Source: Syntrophaceae bacterium UBA2280 (GTDB lineage Bacteria > Desulfobacterota > Syntrophia > Syntrophales > Smithellaceae). From it: DNA of 64,000 nt. The DNA lies in assembly GCA_002347685.1 (NCBI GenBank), contig DDWS01000046.1:151772-215771 (forward strand). Reading direction: 5' to 3'. Position numbers and translations under genes: made by a program. Below, piece after piece: positions 1,696 through 23,995 of the stretch (position 1 is the first letter of the stretch; the number at the start of each line of letters is the position of its first letter). The notes beneath the pieces were generated by a model, which did no database searches, was not told the DNA's origin, and saw nothing but the letters and a program-made list of their open reading frames with translations.

Positions 1696-2712
1696 TTATG
1701 ATTCAGCAATCGCTTTTACAACCTCAAGCGTTCCAATGTGTACGGGGCAGTAATCGGAACAGCGCCCGCAGCCGACACAGCCGCATAAGCTTCCCTGGAT
1801 ATCAATTTCATTGTAATGAAGCAGTTTATGCTCATGACGCCTTTTGAGCCTTAAAGCCTGGCTGGCTCTGGGATTATGGCCGGACGCCTCTTTCGTAAAA
1901 CCGCCGTAGAGACAAGCATCCCAAATCCTCGCGCGAAGGCCGTTACCCGGAGAAAACTGATGATCGTAGACACTGAAACAGGTGCAGGTAGGACACACAA
2001 AAGCGCAGCCGCCGCAGGTAATGCACTTCTGACCGAAGCTGTCCCAGATTTTTTCATCGGCTTTATCATCCTTTAGTTTTTTCATGGCTTTCGCAACCGA
2101 CTTCACTTCAGGCAGGTGTCGGAGGGCCTTCTTTTGAAATTTCGCTATTTGCTGTTCAGCATGGGTGTCATCGATATCGGTAAGCGGAATGGCCGACAGC
2201 AAGGCTTCGCCTCCGGGTGTACCAATCTCAATCAGGAAGGTATCGCCCACGTCGTAGAACTGCAAATCAAAACCTTTTCGCGCGAATGGTCCACTATGAG
2301 TCGTGGTACAAAAACAGGTTTCATTCTGCGGGCCGGGGCAGGCCATGACAATCGTCATCCCCATGTTGCGCTTTGCGGAATAATAAATATCTTTCTGATC
2401 ACGAGACATAAAACTTGTTGCCTGAAGAATTCCCATCATGTCACAGGCGCGAATTCCAAATATAAGCGTGTTTTTCGACGATACGACTTCCCGGTATTCG
2501 TTATTTTCAACTTTAAAGGTAATCTCGGAATGGGGAAAAAACACAGCCTTGGGGGAAAGCGGCGGCTTTTTGTAGTCAAGCGTAAATGTCTTTTCCCGAA
2601 ACGTATCGAAGATACAGTCGCCCGGATCCGTCTGGGTGGGACACAAAACATCATGTTTTTGAGCCCAGATCGTCAGGGTCTCAATGAGGTCTTTTTTGGC
2701 CAATGTCTTCAT
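1696..2712 (-). CDS. 4Fe-4S cluster subunit of the formate dehydrogenase module (sulfhydrogenase beta / AsrA-like)
   Basis: Two ferredoxin-type motifs (CITCGGCAFVCPTC and CGCVGCGRCSDYCP). I moved the start to ATG 2712 (MKTLAKK) because AGGAGG lies 5 nt upstream and this ATG overlaps the fdhA stop as ATGA. Confidence 0.75.
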   Translation of the reverse strand: MKTLAKKDLIETLTIWAQKHDVLCPTQTDPGDCIFDTFREKTFTLDYKKPPLSPKAVFFPHSEITFKVENNEYREVVSSKNTLIFGIRACDMMGILQATSFMSRDQKDIYYSAKRNMGMTIVMACPGPQNETCFCTTTHSGPFARKGFDLQFYDVGDTFLIEIGTPGGEALLSAIPLTDIDDTHAEQQIAKFQKKALRHLPEVKSVAKAMKKLKDDKADEKIWDSFGQKCITCGGCAFVCPTCTCFSVYDHQFSPGNGLRARIWDACLYGGFTKEASGHNPRASQALRLKRRHEHKLLHYNEIDIQGSLCGCVGCGRCSDYCPVHIGTLEVVKAIAES

Positions 2713-4745
2713 ACGCACCTCCTGATTTTCACGGCACATCCTTTGTATTCTGGAATCTTGGCAACAGGATCATACGCCGAGTTGGTCAACAGGTTGATGG
2801 GAGCTTCGTGAAAATGGAAGGTAGAAAATACCACGCTTTGCGGAACCCTTTTGGTTATCTCCGCCTTGAGTCTTACGGCCCCCCGGCGGGAAGTCACCTC
2901 AACCACGTCATTGTTTCTTATCCCCATTTTTTTGGCATCATCCGGATGAATTTCCAGGAGCGCCTCCGGCGCTTCTCTTTCCAGAATACTGATGCGGCGG
3001 GTCATGGTTCCGGTATGGTAGTGATAATAGATGCGTCCCGTGGTGAGCATAAAATCGTACTCTTCATCAGGCATCTCCGCAACCGGCTTGAATTCACACG
3101 GCAGAAATGTTCCCAACCCTTTGCTGAATTTATCTTTATGTAAAACCGGTGTTCCCGGATGTTCCACATTGGGACACGGCCACTGAAGTCCATAGCCGCC
3201 GGCCAACCTCTCATGCGTGATGCCCGCGTAGGAAGGCGTCACGGCATTAATCTCCTTCATGATGTCGGCCGGTGATGAATAATTCATCGGATATCCGGCA
3301 AGCGTGCTCAGTTCACAAATAATCCGCCAGTCCGGGCGGGCTTCTCCCGGAGGAGATATGGCCTTTCCCGACAATTGTACCCTTCTTTCCGTGTTCGTGT
3401 AAGTGCCCTCCTTTTCGGCAAATGAAGCGGCTGGAAGAACAACGTCGGCCTTAACAGCCGTCTCTGAAAGAAACATATCCTGCACAACAAGAAAATCCAG
3501 ATTGGACAGGGCCTGTTCGATATGGGATGTATCCGGGTCACTCATCAGGGGATTTTCTCCCATAACGAAGAGAGCTTTAAGCTCACCTTTTTGCGCCGCG
3601 ATCATCATATCGGTGATGGTCAGGCCCACCTTGTCGTCCAGCGCCGCCACGCCCCAGGCGTCCTCAAATTTCTTTTTCGCAGCAGCATCGATCACAGGTT
3701 GATAACCACTGTATACATTCGGCAAGCCTCCCATGTCACAGGCGCCCTGGACATTGCTTTGTCCGCGCAGGGGATTGACCCCCGTTGCCGGCCTGCCCAG
3801 ATGGCCGGTCAGCATGGCCAGGTTGGCGCAAGATTTTACATTATCCACGCCCGTCGTATGCTGGGTGATGCCCATGGCATAAGCCAGCATGGCCTTGTCC
3901 GCTTTAGCATACATGTTCGCCGCCTTTTTAAGATCGCGGCTTGCGACACCGGAAATCTTTTCCACCACGTGCGGCGGATATTTTCTGACGATCTCCTTTA
4001 ATTGCTCAAATCCTTCCGTTCTTGTTTCGACAAATTCCTTATCGTAGAGCTCTTCTTCTATAATGATGTTCATGATGCCATTGAGCACAGCTACGTCCGT
4101 ACCGATATTCTGGCGCAGATGCAGATCGGCGAACTCAGCCAGTGGTATCTCTCTGGGATCAATCAATAGCAGTTTTGCTCCTCTTTTGACGGCATTGATG
4201 ATGCGCGATCCGATCAGAGGATGCTGCGCTGTGGTGTTAGAACCCGTTACCAGAAAAAGATCGGCATCGTCAAAATCGTTAATCGAGTTTGTCATTGCTC
4301 CGGAACCGAATGTTGCGGCCAGACCGACCACGGTGGAGCTGTGTCAAAGCCTTGCACAGTGATCCACATTGTTTGTGCCGAATGTCGCCCGTGCCATTTT
4401 CATAAAGAGATAGTTTTCTTCATTGGTGACTTTGGCGGAGGCGAGAAAAGCCAGAGCACGAGGGCCGAATTGTTTCTTGATGTCCAATAATCTGTCCGCA
4501 ACAAGCTTCAATGCCTCGTCCCATGTGCTCTCGACTTGCTCTCCATGCTTCCGGATCAGCGGCTTGGTCAGCCTTTCCGGAGAGTGTATAAATTCGTGCG
4601 CGTTCCATCCTTTTACACACAGCATGCCTTTATTGACCGGGTTTGACGGGCTGGGTTCTATGCCTGTCACCCTGTCTCTCTCGGATAAAAGATAGAAGCT
4701 GCATCCACATCCGCAAAATGGACATACGGTTCGCGTCCTGGTCAT
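2709..4745 (-). CDS. fdhA: Formate dehydrogenase catalytic subunit (Mo/W-bis-PGD), selenocysteine-containing; one gene that the ORF track splits in two
   Basis: ORFs 4344..4745 and 2709..4331 are in the same frame, separated only by TGA at 4346-4344. Read-through gives ...[30 protein letters not shown], the conserved Sec/Cys active-site context of FdhA/FdhF. N-terminal CPFCGCGCS 4Fe-4S motif and no Tat signal, so it is cytoplasmic. 678 codons in total. Confidence 0.9.
4315..4346 (-). promoter_or_regulatory. Sec-UGA codon (4346-4344) plus bacterial SECIS hairpin (4331-4315)
   Basis: Minus-strand RNA reads UGA CAC AGC UCC ACC then GUGGUC-GGUCU-GGCCGC. This is a 6-bp stem (with G-U pairs) and an apical GGUCU loop, starting 12 nt after the UGA. 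From memory, the UGA CAC context and GGUC-type loop resemble the E. coli fdhF SECIS. Confidence 0.7.
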
Positions 4746-5590: not shown

Positions 5591-5933
5591 AGCTCTACCT
5601 CCTTCATTCCGAGGATTCTTGATATGACTATTCAGAAACAGCAAGTTTAATACCAAAAGGAGATCCACTTGATATAACGACGATATTGGGAATACAACAT
5701 GATGTATTATGAATGGATGGGGCAGGATACCCCGACTTCGGGGTAATATTACCCTTCTTTCTATATGGCTCCTGGTTTTCTCAATCAAGCTCTGTCAAGA
5801 TATTTTTTTTTACGGCCTCCGGCGTAATATTTCCGCATACGAGTATAAGATAGGATAGGATAGAAAAACAGTTCCGTACACATTCTAATCCTTGACATGG
5901 TCACCCATCGTTTGTTATTGAATATATTATTCA

Positions 5934-6003
5934 GGCGATGGGGTTCGCCTTTAACCGCACACATTGCTGATAACTCCTACGACCTATCTTAGAACCGTGG
6001 GAG
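5934..6003 (+). promoter_or_regulatory. Fluoride riboswitch (crcB motif), copy 1, with SD-sequestering expression platform
   Basis: GGCGAUGGGGUUCGCCUUUAACCGC...GCUGAUAACUCCUAC. P1 is GGCGA/UCGCC. Loop GGGGU (5940-5944) can form a pseudoknot with ACUCC (5973-5977). Anti-SD CUCCUACG (5974-5981) can pair with CGUGGGAG (5996-6003), which covers the GGGAG SD of the GTG start at 6010. Confidence 0.85.
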
Positions 6004-6009
6004 CTCTAT

Positions 6010-7680
6010 GTGACATCATCAAATCCAATGCCCATCAATCAAATCCGAGAATTGCTCGATCTTCTGTCATCAACTGTGAACAGTTTTTCCATGGTATCTC
6101 TTGAAAAGCAACTGGCTGCCGCGCAGGATTTGCTTTTGGAAAATCCACCCATCGATGTGGCAGTTCTGGGACAGTTCAAGGCCGGAAAGAGTTCTTTTCT
6201 CAACAGCTTGCTCGGTCAGAACGTTTTGCCTGTCGGCGCTATTCCGGTCACCACCGCTGTTACCCGCCTGCAATATGGAGAACGTGAGCGTGCGCTGGTT
6301 CGTCATTTTAATGGGCACACCACGAAAGCGAAAGTGCCTCTGGCCGATATTGCAGAGTTTACCTCGGAGACCAGGAATCCCGGCAATGAGAAAAACGTCG
6401 CGATTGTGGACATTGAATTGCCGGCTATGGGAAAATATCCCGGCTTGCGATTGGTCGATACACCCGGACTAGGCAGTGTTTACAAATATCACCAGTCGGC
6501 GTCGGAAAATTGGCTTCCATCGGTCGGCACAGCCCTTTTGGCCGTAAGCTCCGACAGGCCCTTGTCGGAAAATGACCTGGAGCTGATTCGTGAACTAACC
6601 AGCCACACTCCAAACATTATTATTTTGTTGACCAAGGCCGATTTGCTTTCACCGGAACAGCAACAGGAAGTCATCTCGTTTTTTCAGCAGACCCTCCAGC
6701 GGGAGCTCCACCGGACGCTTCCGGTCTATCTTTATTCAACGAAAAGCGGAACCGAAGACTATAAACAGCTTATTGAACAAGACATTTTCCAGACCACTTG
6801 TACCAACCGGGATGATGAATTTTTAAGAATTCTGCGTTATAAGACTCGTTCGCTGTCACAAAGCACACTGAGCTATCTGAGTATTGCGCTGCGTTCATCT
6901 TTGCAGGCTGACTTGAATCGGGACAATCTGCGTGGGCAAATATTCAACGAAAAAATCAACGAAGATCTGATGAACGAGGAACTGGGCATCATCTCCCGTG
7001 AGCATCAACGGCAAACCCGCCCTCTAATTGAGGCTTATCTGGAACCGTTTTTGCCGCCCCTGATTAAAAAAGTTAAAGCCAAACTCGAAAGAGACATGCC
7101 GTCCTGGCAGGGCAATCTCTGGAAACTATCCCGGCGCTATGAGGCATGGGTATCTGAAACGCTCTCCGAGGAGATACGCGGCATTTCAAAAACCGAACAC
7201 ATCCATTTTCTAGGCACTCAGAAAAAAGCCCATGCGAGCTTTTCGAGAACGTTAGAGGTGTTTCGCAAATTTTTAGGCGACAATATTGAAAATGTGCTGG
7301 GCGTAAAGATGGCCGGGGTCGACTGGAAAATCGATGTGGTTGAACCCGATCACCCGGACATTGCCTTCACCAAATCTTTTGATGTTCATCTGGATCTGCT
7401 CTGGTTTCTGATTCCCCTGTTTGTATTCCGGCGGATCTTCGAACGGCATTTTATGAAAGGCTTGCCGAAAGAAGTCGGAATCAATCTGTCACGTCTGGCC
7501 TATCAATGGGAAAAAAGTGTGAATAACGCCATCGATGCAATGCGCATCCAGGCGACCGGCTATATCCATGAAGAACTCGCGACTATCGAAGCCCTGCTTT
7601 CACGGACACAGGGGCAGACGGATGACATTAAACAACTGATCGCTCGGATTGAAAAGTTAACGGATGATTTATCAAAATAG
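6010..7680 (+). CDS. Bacterial dynamin-like GTPase
   Basis: 556 aa. G1 GQFKAGKSS, G3 DTPG and G4 TKAD motifs in dynamin-like order, a long helical region, and a C-terminal hydrophobic segment LLWFLIPLFVF. GTG start with GGGAG 6 nt upstream; an ATG at 6028 is the alternative. Confidence 0.8.
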   Translation: MTSSNPMPINQIRELLDLLSSTVNSFSMVSLEKQLAAAQDLLLENPPIDVAVLGQFKAGKSSFLNSLLGQNVLPVGAIPVTTAVTRLQYGERERALVRHFNGHTTKAKVPLADIAEFTSETRNPGNEKNVAIVDIELPAMGKYPGLRLVDTPGLGSVYKYHQSASENWLPSVGTALLAVSSDRPLSENDLELIRELTSHTPNIIILLTKADLLSPEQQQEVISFFQQTLQRELHRTLPVYLYSTKSGTEDYKQLIEQDIFQTTCTNRDDEFLRILRYKTRSLSQSTLSYLSIALRSSLQADLNRDNLRGQIFNEKINEDLMNEELGIISREHQRQTRPLIEAYLEPFLPPLIKKVKAKLERDMPSWQGNLWKLSRRYEAWVSETLSEEIRGISKTEHIHFLGTQKKAHASFSRTLEVFRKFLGDNIENVLGVKMAGVDWKIDVVEPDHPDIAFTKSFDVHLDLLWFLIPLFVFRRIFERHFMKGLPKEVGINLSRLAYQWEKSVNNAIDAMRIQATGYIHEELATIEALLSRTQGQTDDIKQLIARIEKLTDDLSK

Positions 7681-7811
7681 GACATACTCTTTTTCTAAAG
7701 AAAGAGTGGTGCACTTTGAACTGGAATTCACCATTTATATTCGATCTTGACAAGCACGTCTTGCTTTGATTAAAAGGTCACGCCGTTTAAGCATGTAACC
7801 TTAATCGCGCG

Positions 7812-7879
7812 GGCGATGGAGTTCGCCTTTAACCGCCTTTGCAGCTGATGACTCCTGAAAATGAATCTAAGGAGTCATC
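7812..7879 (+). promoter_or_regulatory. Fluoride riboswitch (crcB motif), copy 2, with SD-sequestering hairpin
   Basis: GGCGAUGGAGUUCGCCUUUAACCGCCUUUGCAGCUGAUGACUCCUG. The GGCGAUGGAGUUCGCC and UGAUGACUCCU blocks match the crcB-motif consensus as I remember it. Loop GGAGU (7818-7822) pairs with ACUCC (7851-7855). GAUGACUCCU (7847-7856) is perfectly complementary to AGGAGUCAUC (7870-7879), which contains the SD. Confidence 0.9.
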
Positions 7880-7881
7880 AT

Positions 7882-9084
7882 ATGGAAACGATCTATCTCG
7901 TCGCCGCGTTCTGGTTCTTTGCCGCCGTCTTATCCACTGTTTTAGCCAATCGCCTGAAAATCTCCATCGCGCTGATGGAAATCATGGTCGGCGCCATCGT
8001 TGGCTTTGCGGCCTTCCAGCTCGGCTATTTCGACAACCTCTCACTCAACGCTGAATGGATGAAATTCTGCACCGGCCTCGGTGCTATTCTGCTGACGTTT
8101 CTTGCGGGCGCGGAGCTTAACCCCGACGCCATGAAAGCAAAAATAAAGGAAGTCTCCATCATCGGCATGATTGGCTTTTCCGCCCCGTTTATCGGCTGCT
8201 TTCTGATTGCCTATTACCTCATCGGCTGGAGTATGCAGGCAAGCCTGTTATGCGGTATCGCTTTATCCACCACCTCCATGGCCGTGGTTTACGCGGTTAT
8301 GCTGGAATACGGATTCAATAAAACAGAATTCGGTAAGGGCATCCTGGGCGCGTGTTTCGTCAATGACCTGGGCACCGTCATCGCACTGGGACTTATTTTC
8401 GCGCCTTTCACTTATAAAACCGTCATATTCATTGCGGCGACAATCATTCTGATGTTTACCTTGCGTCCAATGACGGATTACATCATCAAGCGTTTCGCAT
8501 ACAAAACGGCAGCCATCCGTGCCAAGTGGATCCTCTTCATCCTTCTGGCAATGGGTGTTCTTGCCGCTTGGTCAGGAAGTGAACCGGTCCTGCCGGCTTA
8601 TATTCTGGGCATGGTTTTGGCCCGGACCATGGAGAAAGACGGCCATTTTGTCAGACGTTTAAGAACATTAACTGTCGGCTTTTTGACCCCGCTGTATTTT
8701 CTCAGGGCCGGAGCACTTGTCTCTATCCCGGCGCTTCTGTCTGGTTCGGGTGTTTTTCTTCTACTTTTCGGCGGGAAGGTCGTCTCTAAGATATTTGGCT
8801 TATACCCGGCTATTCATCATTTCCGGGAGGATAAGAAAGAAAAGTGGTACTATACCTTGCTGATGAGCACGGGGCTGACGTTCGGAACCATCTCGGCGCT
8901 CTATGGCCTGTCCAATAATATTATTTCTCAGGAACAGTATTCGCTGATTGTCGGTGCCGTGATTGCAAGCGCCGTGATCCCGACGCTGATTGCCAATAAG
9001 TTCTTCCTGCCCGGTCATCTGCTGGAACCGCCTATACTGGATGATCAGGTGCCGGATGAAAAAGATATTCACAATAAGTTGTAA
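7882..9084 (+). CDS. Cation:proton antiporter (CPA2 / Na+-H+ exchanger family)
   Basis: About 400 aa polytopic membrane protein with an N-terminus (METIYLVAAFWFFAAVLSTVLANRLKISIALMEIMVGAIVGF) typical of the KefB/NapA-type family. Start set at ATG 7882, 7 nt after AAGGAG. The track's 7861 start lies inside the riboswitch hairpin loop. Confidence 0.85.
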   Translation: METIYLVAAFWFFAAVLSTVLANRLKISIALMEIMVGAIVGFAAFQLGYFDNLSLNAEWMKFCTGLGAILLTFLAGAELNPDAMKAKIKEVSIIGMIGFSAPFIGCFLIAYYLIGWSMQASLLCGIALSTTSMAVVYAVMLEYGFNKTEFGKGILGACFVNDLGTVIALGLIFAPFTYKTVIFIAATIILMFTLRPMTDYIIKRFAYKTAAIRAKWILFILLAMGVLAAWSGSEPVLPAYILGMVLARTMEKDGHFVRRLRTLTVGFLTPLYFLRAGALVSIPALLSGSGVFLLLFGGKVVSKIFGLYPAIHHFREDKKEKWYYTLLMSTGLTFGTISALYGLSNNIISQEQYSLIVGAVIASAVIPTLIANKFFLPGHLLEPPILDDQVPDEKDIHNKL

Positions 9085-22795: not shown

Positions 22796-23995
22796 ATGAC
22801 CAGCTATCTGCTCATTATTTTCTGCCTCATGGTCCTCATGGCCTATATCTTTGATATTACGGCCAAGCACACCCGGATCCCCGGAGTGATTTTGCTGATT
22901 CTCAGCGGTATGGTCATGAACTACCTGGCTTTTGTCTTTGGCATCCGGATTCCAAACCTTTCGGTCCTTCTTCCCTTGATGGGAACGCTGGGCCTGATTC
23001 TCATTGTGCTTGAAAGCAGCATGGAATTGTCTATCTCCGCCGACAAACGTCGTCTCATCCTCAGCGCCATTGGTTCCGCTTTCTTGCTGTTGACCGTTTT
23101 TACAGGCGTTGTCACCTGGATCTGTGTTTATCATTTTCAACTGGACGTGAAAAGCTCCCTGATCAGCATCCTGCCGCTGGCCATCATCGGCAGCACGGTG
23201 GCCATCTCCGCGGCGGTCCACCTTAGCGAAACCGACAGGGAATTCATTGCCTATGAAAGTTCCTTATCCTGCATATTCGGCATTTTGATCTTTGATTTCA
23301 TATTACTCGGCAACGGAGCGCTCGGGATCGGCATTGCGGGTTTCGCAGGCGAGCTTTTCATCACCATCGTCGGCGCCGTTGTGATTTCAACCGGGTTGGC
23401 CATCGTGCTTCACAAAATCACTCACCAGGTCAAATATATCGTGATCATGACGGTAATCGTTTTGGTCTATGCGGTGGCGAAACTCATCCACCTGCCATCG
23501 CTTCTGGTGGTTTTGATTTTCGGCCTTGTGATGAACAATACGCATTTCTTCAAAACCGAATGGTCTGAAAAGATCGTCAACTTTCAGGCTTTCGCAATGG
23601 AGCTGATTTCCTTTCGCGGGATTACCGGGGAATTGTCCTTTGTCGTTCGCTCCTTTTTCTTCATCCTGTTCGGCTACTATACGAACCTTTCCGACCTGAT
23701 GAATCTTACAAACTTAAGCCTGTCGGCTCTGATCGTTCTTTGCATTCTGCTGATCCGGGGACTTTTCCTGCTTGCCTTGCGTCAACCGCTCATTCCTCTG
23801 TTGTTCTTCGCCCCTCGCGGACTGATCACCATTTTGCTGTTTTTGAGCATACCCGATCATCTGATGCTTCCCTTCATGAATGAGGGCGTCGTCACCCAGG
23901 TCATTTTTCTCTCGATCCTTGTGATGATGCTGGGAAACATTTTCTTTGGAAAACGTCATCTGCAGACACAAAACGGATCTTCCCAGAACACTTGA
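22796..23995 (+). CDS. Cation:proton antiporter (Na+/H+ exchanger family)
   Basis: 399 aa, about 11-12 TM. The N-terminus (IFDITAKHTRIPGVILLILSGMV) is typical of CPA1/CPA2 exchangers. Confidence 0.7.
   Translation: MTSYLLIIFCLMVLMAYIFDITAKHTRIPGVILLILSGMVMNYLAFVFGIRIPNLSVLLPLMGTLGLILIVLESSMELSISADKRRLILSAIGSAFLLLTVFTGVVTWICVYHFQLDVKSSLISILPLAIIGSTVAISAAVHLSETDREFIAYESSLSCIFGILIFDFILLGNGALGIGIAGFAGELFITIVGAVVISTGLAIVLHKITHQVKYIVIMTVIVLVYAVAKLIHLPSLLVVLIFGLVMNNTHFFKTEWSEKIVNFQAFAMELISFRGITGELSFVVRSFFFILFGYYTNLSDLMNLTNLSLSALIVLCILLIRGLFLLALRQPLIPLLFFAPRGLITILLFLSIPDHLMLPFMNEGVVTQVIFLSILVMMLGNIFFGKRHLQTQNGSSQNT

Follow-up and report, generated by a model that had tools for sequence, protein, structure and literature searches.

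The window analysed here, a 64,000-nucleotide (nt) stretch of contig DDWS01000046.1 (assembly GCA_002347685.1, positions 151,772 to 215,771 of the forward strand) from Syntrophaceae bacterium UBA2280, carries a fluoride riboswitch in front of a gene encoding a bacterial dynamin-like protein (DLP). Sequence and comparative evidence make it very probable that fluoride induces the DLP gene via this leader. A role of the DLP in membrane protection or remodelling, proposed after IniA and DynA, is a tentative assignment with somewhat less than an even chance of being right. The account as a whole, in which a functional fluoride riboswitch switches on a membrane-protecting dynamin-like GTPase, is the one we modestly favour. 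The features on which it is based are as follows (coordinates are those of the window).

5892–5897, + strand: possible −35 box TTGACA, ca. 30 nt 5′ of aptamer 1; tentative, read by eye
5925–5986, + strand: fluoride riboswitch aptamer 1 (crcB motif, RF01734), full-length Rfam match
5934–5938 (GGCGA) with 5945–5949 (UCGCC), + strand: P1 of aptamer 1
5957–5959 with 5965–5967, + strand: P2 of aptamer 1
5940–5944 (loop GGGGU) with 5973–5977 (ACUCC), + strand: pseudoknot of aptamer 1
5972–6005, + strand: expression platform 1, hairpin of CUCCUACG (5974–5981) with CGUGGGAG (5996–6003), found in minimum free energy (MFE) and centroid folds
5999–6003, + strand: Shine–Dalgarno (SD) sequence GGGAG of the DLP gene, inside the 3′ hairpin arm and 6 nt 5′ of the GTG at 6010
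6010–7680, + strand: DLP gene, 556 amino acids (aa), GTG start; assigned by Pfam, AlphaFold2 and Foldseek
6145–6744, + strand: DLP G domain (approximately aa 46–245), AlphaFold2 model
7390–7428, + strand: hydrophobic segment LDLLWFLIPLFVF (aa 461–473), top Kyte–Doolittle window; candidate membrane-inserting paddle

An Rfam scan of the whole window returned only two matches, both to RF01734. The match at 5925–5986 scored 55.9 bits (gathering threshold 34, E 8e-13) and covered model positions 1–64 of 64; this score and full-length coverage place it far beyond chance, and the score equals the best among the orthologues scored by Rfam. Aptamer 1 ends 24 nt before the GTG start. In the MFE and centroid folds of 5925–6030, the 3′ pseudoknot strand CUCCUACG is the alternative partner of CGUGGGAG, and P1 also forms. 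In the proposed mechanism, CUCCUACG would pair with CGUGGGAG when fluoride is absent, hiding the SD. Binding of fluoride with Mg2+ would lock ACUCC into the pseudoknot with GGGGU, thereby freeing the SD and allowing the DLP to be translated. No good −10 box was found at standard spacing for the TTGACA at 5892–5897, and the promoter scan did not report this site.

The two mutually exclusive structures were evaluated by counting base pairs in 33 aligned orthologous DLP leaders, with slid-register alignments as controls. In the ligand-bound state (P1, P2 and pseudoknot), 97.2% of cells were paired, compared with 36%–54% in the slid controls; the pseudoknot was 100% paired, and P1 and P2 contained one covarying pair each. 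The SD-sequestering helix was paired in 85% of cells, with compensatory double changes at four of its 11 pairs. Overall, the two-state structure was 89% paired in register versus 37%–50% when slid, and an independent anchored count of 51 unique hairpins gave the same picture. The original prediction, made from the letters of the window, had proposed a crcB-motif fluoride aptamer at 5934–5980 with the P1, loop and pseudoknot listed above, an anti-SD/SD hairpin hiding the GGGAG before the GTG, and a two-state ON-switch design. The first was found to be correct in its sequence and was recovered by the covariance model, the second appeared in both folds and is conserved with compensatory changes, and the third gained comparative support from the aligned leaders.

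The DLP matched Pfam Dynamin_N with 90.7 bits (cutoff 27), and its close homologues, from Smithellaceae and Syntrophaceae, are annotated as “dynamin family protein”. The G1 (GQFKAGKS, aa 54), G3 (DTPG, aa 150) and G4 (TKAD, aa 208) motifs are present, and their core residues are invariant across the family alignments; on this basis, the DLP is predicted to be an active GTPase. An AlphaFold2 model built on a 42-sequence alignment (mean predicted local distance difference test score, pLDDT, 81.2; predicted template modelling score 0.73) showed helical bundles after the G domain, with long helices at aa 248–430 and 470–555 separated by a loop at 431–469. The dynamin-type motifs and long helical stalk read from the sequence at the outset are thus borne out by the Pfam match and the model. 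The segment LDLLWFLIPLFVF lies in the loop region between helices 402–430 and 470–531, and all 42 aligned sequences share its residues W465, F466 and P469. A profile search of the PDB placed Campylobacter DLP1/2, IniA and Nostoc BDLP first. Foldseek searches against the PDB likewise recovered IniA (6j72, E 1.6e-18), BDLP (2j68/2j69), Cj-DLP (5owv), SynDLP, dynamin-1 and mitofusins, all with a probability of 1.00 and alignments of near full length. Taken together, the identification of the product as a BDLP/IniA-type GTPase is strongly supported. Two more specific assignments were tried and rejected: the NCBIfam equivalog for DynA (NF052648) scored 39.8 bits against a cutoff of 1600, and that for CrfC (NF007368) 17.8 bits against a cutoff of 1146.

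A genome scan with orthologue alignment yielded 80 Syntrophales loci (designated L with a number) with 51%–83% protein identity, including one (L038) in the complete genome of Syntrophus buswellii DM-2. In 77 of the 80, a pattern search placed the aptamer core at 18–136 nt before the start codon of the DLP gene. The three pattern-negative loci comprised L036 and L043, which have no upstream sequence (the match begins at locus base 1–2, within the gene), and L046, in which Rfam detected the aptamer. Hence, an aptamer precedes the DLP gene in all 78 Syntrophales genome loci having upstream sequence, and Rfam confirmed it in 20 of the 20 most divergent ones. The aptamer and the DLP gene are the only invariant unit of the Syntrophales loci. 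Two metagenome-assembled genomes (MAGs) encode two DLP paralogues, each with its own aptamer (L014/L016 in JAGPFC01 and L053/L054 in DASRZZ01). In these bins, no aptamer-less copy was seen within this DLP subfamily, to which the survey was directed. That both paralogues stand under aptamers speaks for a function reserved for stress and against a housekeeping role.

The association extends beyond the order. An exhaustive search of a library of representatives at 50% identity delimited a family of 676 clusters (E ≤ 1e-30) of relatives of 540–580 aa. Distant members were sampled through the contigs of 12 representatives with about 28%–42% identity and through one metagenome scan; a profile search with the distant representatives mostly returned further Syntrophales sequences. 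Among the 12 distant clades, six were aptamer-positive, three were negative and three lay on contigs ending inside an upstream co-oriented gene, so that six of the nine informative clades carried an aptamer directly upstream of the DLP gene or of an abutting co-oriented gene. The aptamer directly precedes the DLP gene in L083, L084 and L089. The order is aptamer, enolase, DLP and GGGtGRT in L085/86; aptamer, antiporter and DLP in L090/91; and aptamer, antiporter, aptamer and DLP in L094. The metagenome scan added 80 loci, which were searched by pattern first and then by Rfam in every negative or far-upstream case. The pattern undercounts distant aptamers (12 of 29 loci scored as “none” were positive by Rfam), and all negatives accordingly rest on Rfam. 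Every metagenome locus with at least 50% identity to the window protein and upstream sequence was aptamer-positive (33/33), as were 22 of the 39 loci below 40% identity (14 adjacent and 8 with the aptamer one or two co-oriented genes upstream). The check proposed together with the original prediction, whether DLP orthologues share the leader, was thus answered in the affirmative for the genome loci and the close metagenome loci, and for more than half of the distant ones. A one-off duplication of the leader was ruled out, as no informative orthologous locus lacks the aptamer.

If the leader works as proposed, the DLP would be made only under fluoride stress and would work at the cytoplasmic membrane, preserving or repairing it. 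Hydrogen fluoride influx, acidification and ion imbalance would meanwhile be handled by a co-regulated antiporter or exporter. This membrane role is favoured because of the analogy with IniA and DynA, the conserved hydrophobic segment as a putative tip, and the ON-only regulation, which includes both paralogues. Several points weigh against the favoured account. We know of no direct membrane damage by fluoride. The hydrophobic segment is only 13 residues long and falls in a low-confidence part of the model (local pLDDT 46–57), and TM-scores to solved DLPs were 0.33–0.37, so the overall conformation is weakly fixed, although proteins with several hinged domains would be expected to score low. 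Not every member of the wider family shows the link: three of the 12 distant clades had no aptamer in the available upstream sequence, and 17 of the 39 metagenome loci below 40% identity had none within 2.5 kb upstream by Rfam. In the window itself, the terminator scan detected no + strand terminator between the DLP stop codon and the second aptamer described below. Finally, a 2024 review explains fluoride toxicity by acidification and enzyme inhibition (PMC11139923).

In a different explanation, the DLP GTPase is itself poisoned by fluoride and replaced by extra synthesis, as for enolase and pyrophosphatase, with no fluoride-specific membrane problem involved. Metal-fluoride mimics of the transition state (such as GDP-AlF4−, BeF3− and MgF3−) trap the G domains of dynamin and mitofusin, and the transition-like-state MFN1 entry 5gom was among the Foldseek matches. 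The co-regulated neighbours often perform phosphoryl transfer or handle nucleotides (enolase, HIT, His_Phos_1, AAA-like P-loop, MutS_V and metallophosphoesterase-dUTPase proteins), and upregulation of enolase and phosphatases has been explained as counteracting inhibition (PMC11139923). However, an ON switch implies that little DLP is made when fluoride is absent, a poor fit for a housekeeping function that only has to be topped up. Moreover, both paralogues of each MAG are under aptamers, and no constitutive copy was seen within the subfamily surveyed. We therefore regard compensation for a poisoned GTPase as unlikely. In a bolder combination of the two ideas, fluoride would act twice, first by riboswitch induction and then as a Mg- or Al-fluoride transition-state mimic locking the G domains in a dimerised, assembled form. 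This is quite improbable in our judgement. If true, the DLP would polymerise on the membrane only with fluoride inside the cell, serving as a fluoride-activated scaffold or repair machine; loss of membrane integrity would be an overlooked primary component of fluoride toxicity; and the clade of ca. 550-aa DLPs would be the first subfamily of bacterial dynamins for which a chemical trigger is defined.

Instead of remodelling membranes, the DLP could also be a GTPase partner or regulator of a co-encoded transporter (a CPA2 antiporter or CrcB/DUF190). The evidence bearing on this possibility starts in the window, where a second riboswitch unit follows the DLP gene.

7747–7752, + strand: possible −35-like TTGACA before aptamer 2, read from the sequence
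7803–7864, + strand: fluoride riboswitch aptamer 2 (RF01734), 52.1 bits, Rfam
7847–7879, + strand: expression platform 2, GAUGACUCCU (7847–7856) with AGGAGUCAUC (7870–7879), from sequence and MFE fold
7870–7874, + strand: SD sequence AGGAG of the antiporter gene, 7 nt before the ATG at 7882 and buried in the hairpin
7882–9084, + strand: CPA2-family Na+/H+ (cation/proton) antiporter gene; Pfam Na_H_Exchanger 114.5 bits, NCBIfam CPA2 subfamily

Aptamer 2 begins 123 nt past the DLP stop codon. Of two in-frame ATG codons, the one at 7882 is likely the true start of the antiporter, as the resulting N-terminus matches that of the orthologues (cluster C4); the other, at 7861, falls inside the aptamer. 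The MFE structure of platform 2 is an 11-bp hairpin (z = −3.98; none of 200 shuffles folded equally well). Both window leaders share the design with the SD in the 3′ arm, and the second hairpin is the stronger. The DLP and antiporter genes may therefore be co-transcribed yet separately gated, given that no terminator was detected between them. The original description of the riboswitch as standing before a dynamin-like GTPase “instead of a fluoride exporter” was right in that the aptamer precedes the DLP gene. It was incomplete in two respects: an aptamer-controlled antiporter comes next in the window, and in L136 the DLP shares a crcB operon. Elsewhere in the window, no CrcB-sized open reading frame (ORF) with multiple transmembrane segments was found by a heuristic CrcB screen, and no CLC was found; the membrane proteins present are an ABC-2 permease, CNNM/CBS, SBF, a Na/Pi cotransporter, a second Na_H_Exchanger, BPD_transp_1 (an ABC permease) and MacB/FtsX. 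The second Na_H_Exchanger-family gene (22796–23995) has no fluoride aptamer, that is, one of the two antiporter paralogues is fluoride-controlled.

Other loci bring the DLP and transporter genes still closer. The antiporter starts 3 nt past the DLP end coordinate in L087/88, and the DLP start is the base next to the antiporter end in L090/91; such gaps of 0–2 bases in distant clades are compatible with translational coupling. In L094, as in the window, the two genes are adjacent, with a separate aptamer each. A CPA2 antiporter lies within 3 kb of the DLP gene in 17 of the 80 Syntrophales loci. In L136 (808–1675), the aptamer is followed by CrcB (Pfam 101.5 bits), DUF190 and the DLP, placing a dynamin in a fluoride channel operon, and in L093 (261–656) the DLP comes directly after DUF190. 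A precedent for a dynamin-based partner is provided by E. coli RdcA/RdcB, which control the membrane diguanylate cyclase DgcE (PMC6510439, PMC13463826). Nevertheless, no transporter is a constant companion. The gene after the DLP in Syntrophales is enolase (22 loci), an AAA-like protein (20), HIT (18), a prenyltransferase-like protein (9) or the C6/GGGtGRT pair (8), in which C6 is a 230-aa protein without a Pfam match; in some loci there is none. A dedicated transporter partner is consequently a distinctly doubtful reading, and the membrane-protecting GTPase remains the one we prefer.

The recurrent neighbours deserve description in their own right. In the Syntrophales loci, extra aptamers stand before the genes for the CPA2 antiporter, a MutS_V protein and C14, an unknown protein of 314 aa. 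In distant metagenome loci, the genes between the aptamer and the DLP include those for a P-loop protein of AAA-like type, a prenyltransferase-like protein and a fusion of metallophosphoesterase and dUTPase. The first of these, an AAA_16/STAND-like P-loop protein of 220–250 aa, occurs in the 20 Syntrophales loci and in L112 and L172; the second, with a prenyltransferase/squalene-cyclase-like alpha-alpha toroid, in the nine loci and in L083 and L097; and the fusion protein in L151, L155 and L166. In L071, an nhaA-I RNA (RF03057, 45 bits, threshold 37) lies at 2743–2788 on the − strand, ca. 120 nt upstream of and divergent from the DLP fluoride aptamer, so that two ion-sensing RNAs share one intergenic region. 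In L092 (71–3669), from an aptamer-negative distant clade, a HAMP-guanylate/adenylate cyclase gene lies immediately upstream of the DLP gene, an arrangement reminiscent of E. coli RdcA-DgcE. Divergent from the riboswitch region of the window is an fdh-like operon, and the same synteny is found at L017. Its gene for the formate dehydrogenase alpha subunit (2709–4745, − strand) is split into two ORFs by a single in-frame TGA at 4344–4346 within the motif CARL-U-HSSTVVGL; the TGA is almost certainly a selenocysteine codon and not the mark of a pseudogene.

The mode of control in the window leader also allows an alternative: the leader may act less on translation than by terminating transcription, or it may be a decaying copy. 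Terminators commonly overlap crcB motifs (Weinberg 2010), and 62 of the 74 unique orthologous leaders are terminator-like, with at least five U in the 8 nt after the hairpin (consensus GGAGUUUUUUUAUG). In most orthologues, the hairpin thus probably terminates transcription besides trapping the SD. In contrast, the window copy, GGGAGCUCUAUGUG, is one of the 12 unique leaders without a U-tract and has lost it: the sequence 3′ of the platform-1 hairpin is CUCUAUGUG, and the terminator scan found no + strand site between aptamer 1 and the start codon at 6010. Given these two absences, translational control is the most likely mode in the window. The position of the SD inside the 3′ arm, common to both window leaders, and an aptamer score as good as that of any orthologue further argue against termination or decay, which we consider very improbable here. 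Longer leaders, with 64–108 nt between aptamer and start, were observed in L031–L033, L038, L039, L046, L064, L065, L074, L077 and L078. In these, the anti-SD is duplicated (ACUCCUGC) and GCAGGAG forms an SD-like decoy. The leaders may form a two-hairpin relay: one hairpin would join the aptamer tail to the decoy, and the other the second anti-SD to the true SD. Both hairpins were present in the fold of L033 (z = −2.87). With fluoride bound, the second anti-SD would be captured by the decoy and the SD released, still making an ON switch, with an extra relay step. Apparent tandem fluoride aptamers in L060, L069 and L073 came from a loose pattern (≤ 3 mismatches) only and were rejected, as Rfam found one aptamer per site.

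The idea that the DLP is a LeoA-type anti-phage defence dynamin with an incidental aptamer, raised by a PADLOC LeoA match (E 2.4e-10), was rejected as having almost no likelihood, because that match is confined to aa 10–89 (the P-loop region) of a 559-position model with 38 bits, no LeoB/LeoC-like second dynamin is adjacent, the neighbours belong to the fluoride regulon and not to defence, and the PHROGs match is negligible.

Fluoride riboswitches are known to control a heterogeneous set of genes. Three accessible sources (PMC11139923, Weinberg 2010, and Sherlock and Breaker 2020) list fluoride exporters, Na+/H+ antiporters, pyrophosphatase, HAD phosphatases, enolase and formate hydrogen lyase, together with chorismate mutase, mutS, K+/Cl− transporters, iscU and GTP cyclohydrolase. 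Na+/H+ antiporters are the second most common associated class and, with enolase, standard members of the regulon (PMC11139923). No dynamin or GTPase was found among the associated genes in these sources, including the Weinberg 2010 supplement. In the searchable full-text literature, “fluoride riboswitch” and “dynamin” never occurred together, the association table of Baker et al. (2012) lying outside this scope, where an unremarked listing is possible. Likewise, no full-text paper combined fluoride, Syntrophus and riboswitch, and co-mentions of GTPase, or of riboswitch with dynamin-like protein, were incidental only. NC_007759, which we take to be S. aciditrophicus, was not found in the searched part of the Weinberg 2010 crcB alignments, among 200 of the 438 supplementary files. 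The suggestion that a dynamin-like GTPase is undescribed in fluoride regulons therefore stands for the searchable literature, which contained no paper linking the two and did not extend to Baker et al. (2012) and its supplement. As a conserved member of the fluoride regulon that often stands first in its operon, the DLP appears to be undescribed; the riboswitch class, the protein superfamily and the heterogeneity of the regulon are all already known, and riboswitch biology is not overturned by the finding.

The significance lies mainly with the protein. The physiological roles of bacterial DLPs are largely unknown, and few of these proteins, to our knowledge, have a defined inducing signal. 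Here, a riboswitch whose ligand is known offers such a trigger for a whole DLP subfamily (676 clusters), whose function can be tested directly by adding fluoride. Existing explanations of the regulon invoke export, the homeostasis of pH and ions, and the replacement of inhibited enzymes, to which the DLP would add a membrane-active GTPase. The finding thus bears on how fluoride causes bacterial lysis and points to a membrane-associated side of fluoride toxicity. The loci also expose uncharacterised recurrent regulon members, namely the AAA/STAND-like and prenyltransferase-like proteins, the GGGtGRT pair, the metallophosphoesterase-dUTPase fusion and C14.

Compared with the known fluoride riboswitches of Bacillus cereus crcB and Thermotoga petrophila, the window aptamer has the same P1, P2 and pseudoknot and a full-length model match. 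The ON logic is also the same, with the 3′ pseudoknot strand competing with the platform hairpin, and the unit is likewise part of a multi-gene island with antiporter and enolase. The differences are that the controlled gene here encodes a dynamin-like GTPase, that the window copy is apparently translational only, and that some orthologues appear to use a two-hairpin relay. Enolase, pyrophosphatase, Na+/H+ antiporters, MutS-like proteins, CrcB/Fluc and CLC-F are controlled by the same aptamer class and often share operons with the DLP; however, these proteins either act in transport or have an active site known to be sensitive to fluoride, whereas the DLP has no described link to fluoride chemistry. 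E. coli RdcA (YjdA), a bacterial dynamin homologue that regulates the membrane protein DgcE together with RdcB (PMC6510439, PMC13463826), belongs to a different subfamily, as the CrfC/YjdA-type NCBIfam scores of the DLP are far below the cutoffs, and it has another partner and no riboswitch.

Closer likenesses were found among the structurally characterised DLPs. Nostoc punctiforme BDLP and Campylobacter jejuni DLP1/DLP2 have the same combination of a G domain and a helical neck and trunk, and the hydrophobic segment of the window DLP, a candidate paddle, likewise lies near the C-terminal fifth of the chain. The window DLP is shorter (556 aa versus solved chains of ca. 590–700 residues), has 14%–16% identity to these proteins and, unlike DLP1/DLP2, is encoded by a single gene rather than a pair. 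We know of no established physiological trigger for either BDLP or DLP1/DLP2. Bacillus subtilis DynA belongs to the common dynamin family, and the window DLP is not its orthologue: DynA is a two-headed fusion of ca. 1200 aa without riboswitch control, and it protects the membrane under stress. The best structural match is Mycobacterium IniA, with ca. 590 aligned columns, a PDB profile match and a similar size, at a sequence identity of ca. 18%. IniA is a solo DLP with a membrane-interacting tip, is induced by cell-wall drugs and is implicated in membrane fission or maintenance. Its induction proceeds via protein regulators in the iniBAC operon, and the stress is exerted by cell-envelope antibiotics, whereas the window DLP is placed under a riboswitch that would respond to fluoride.

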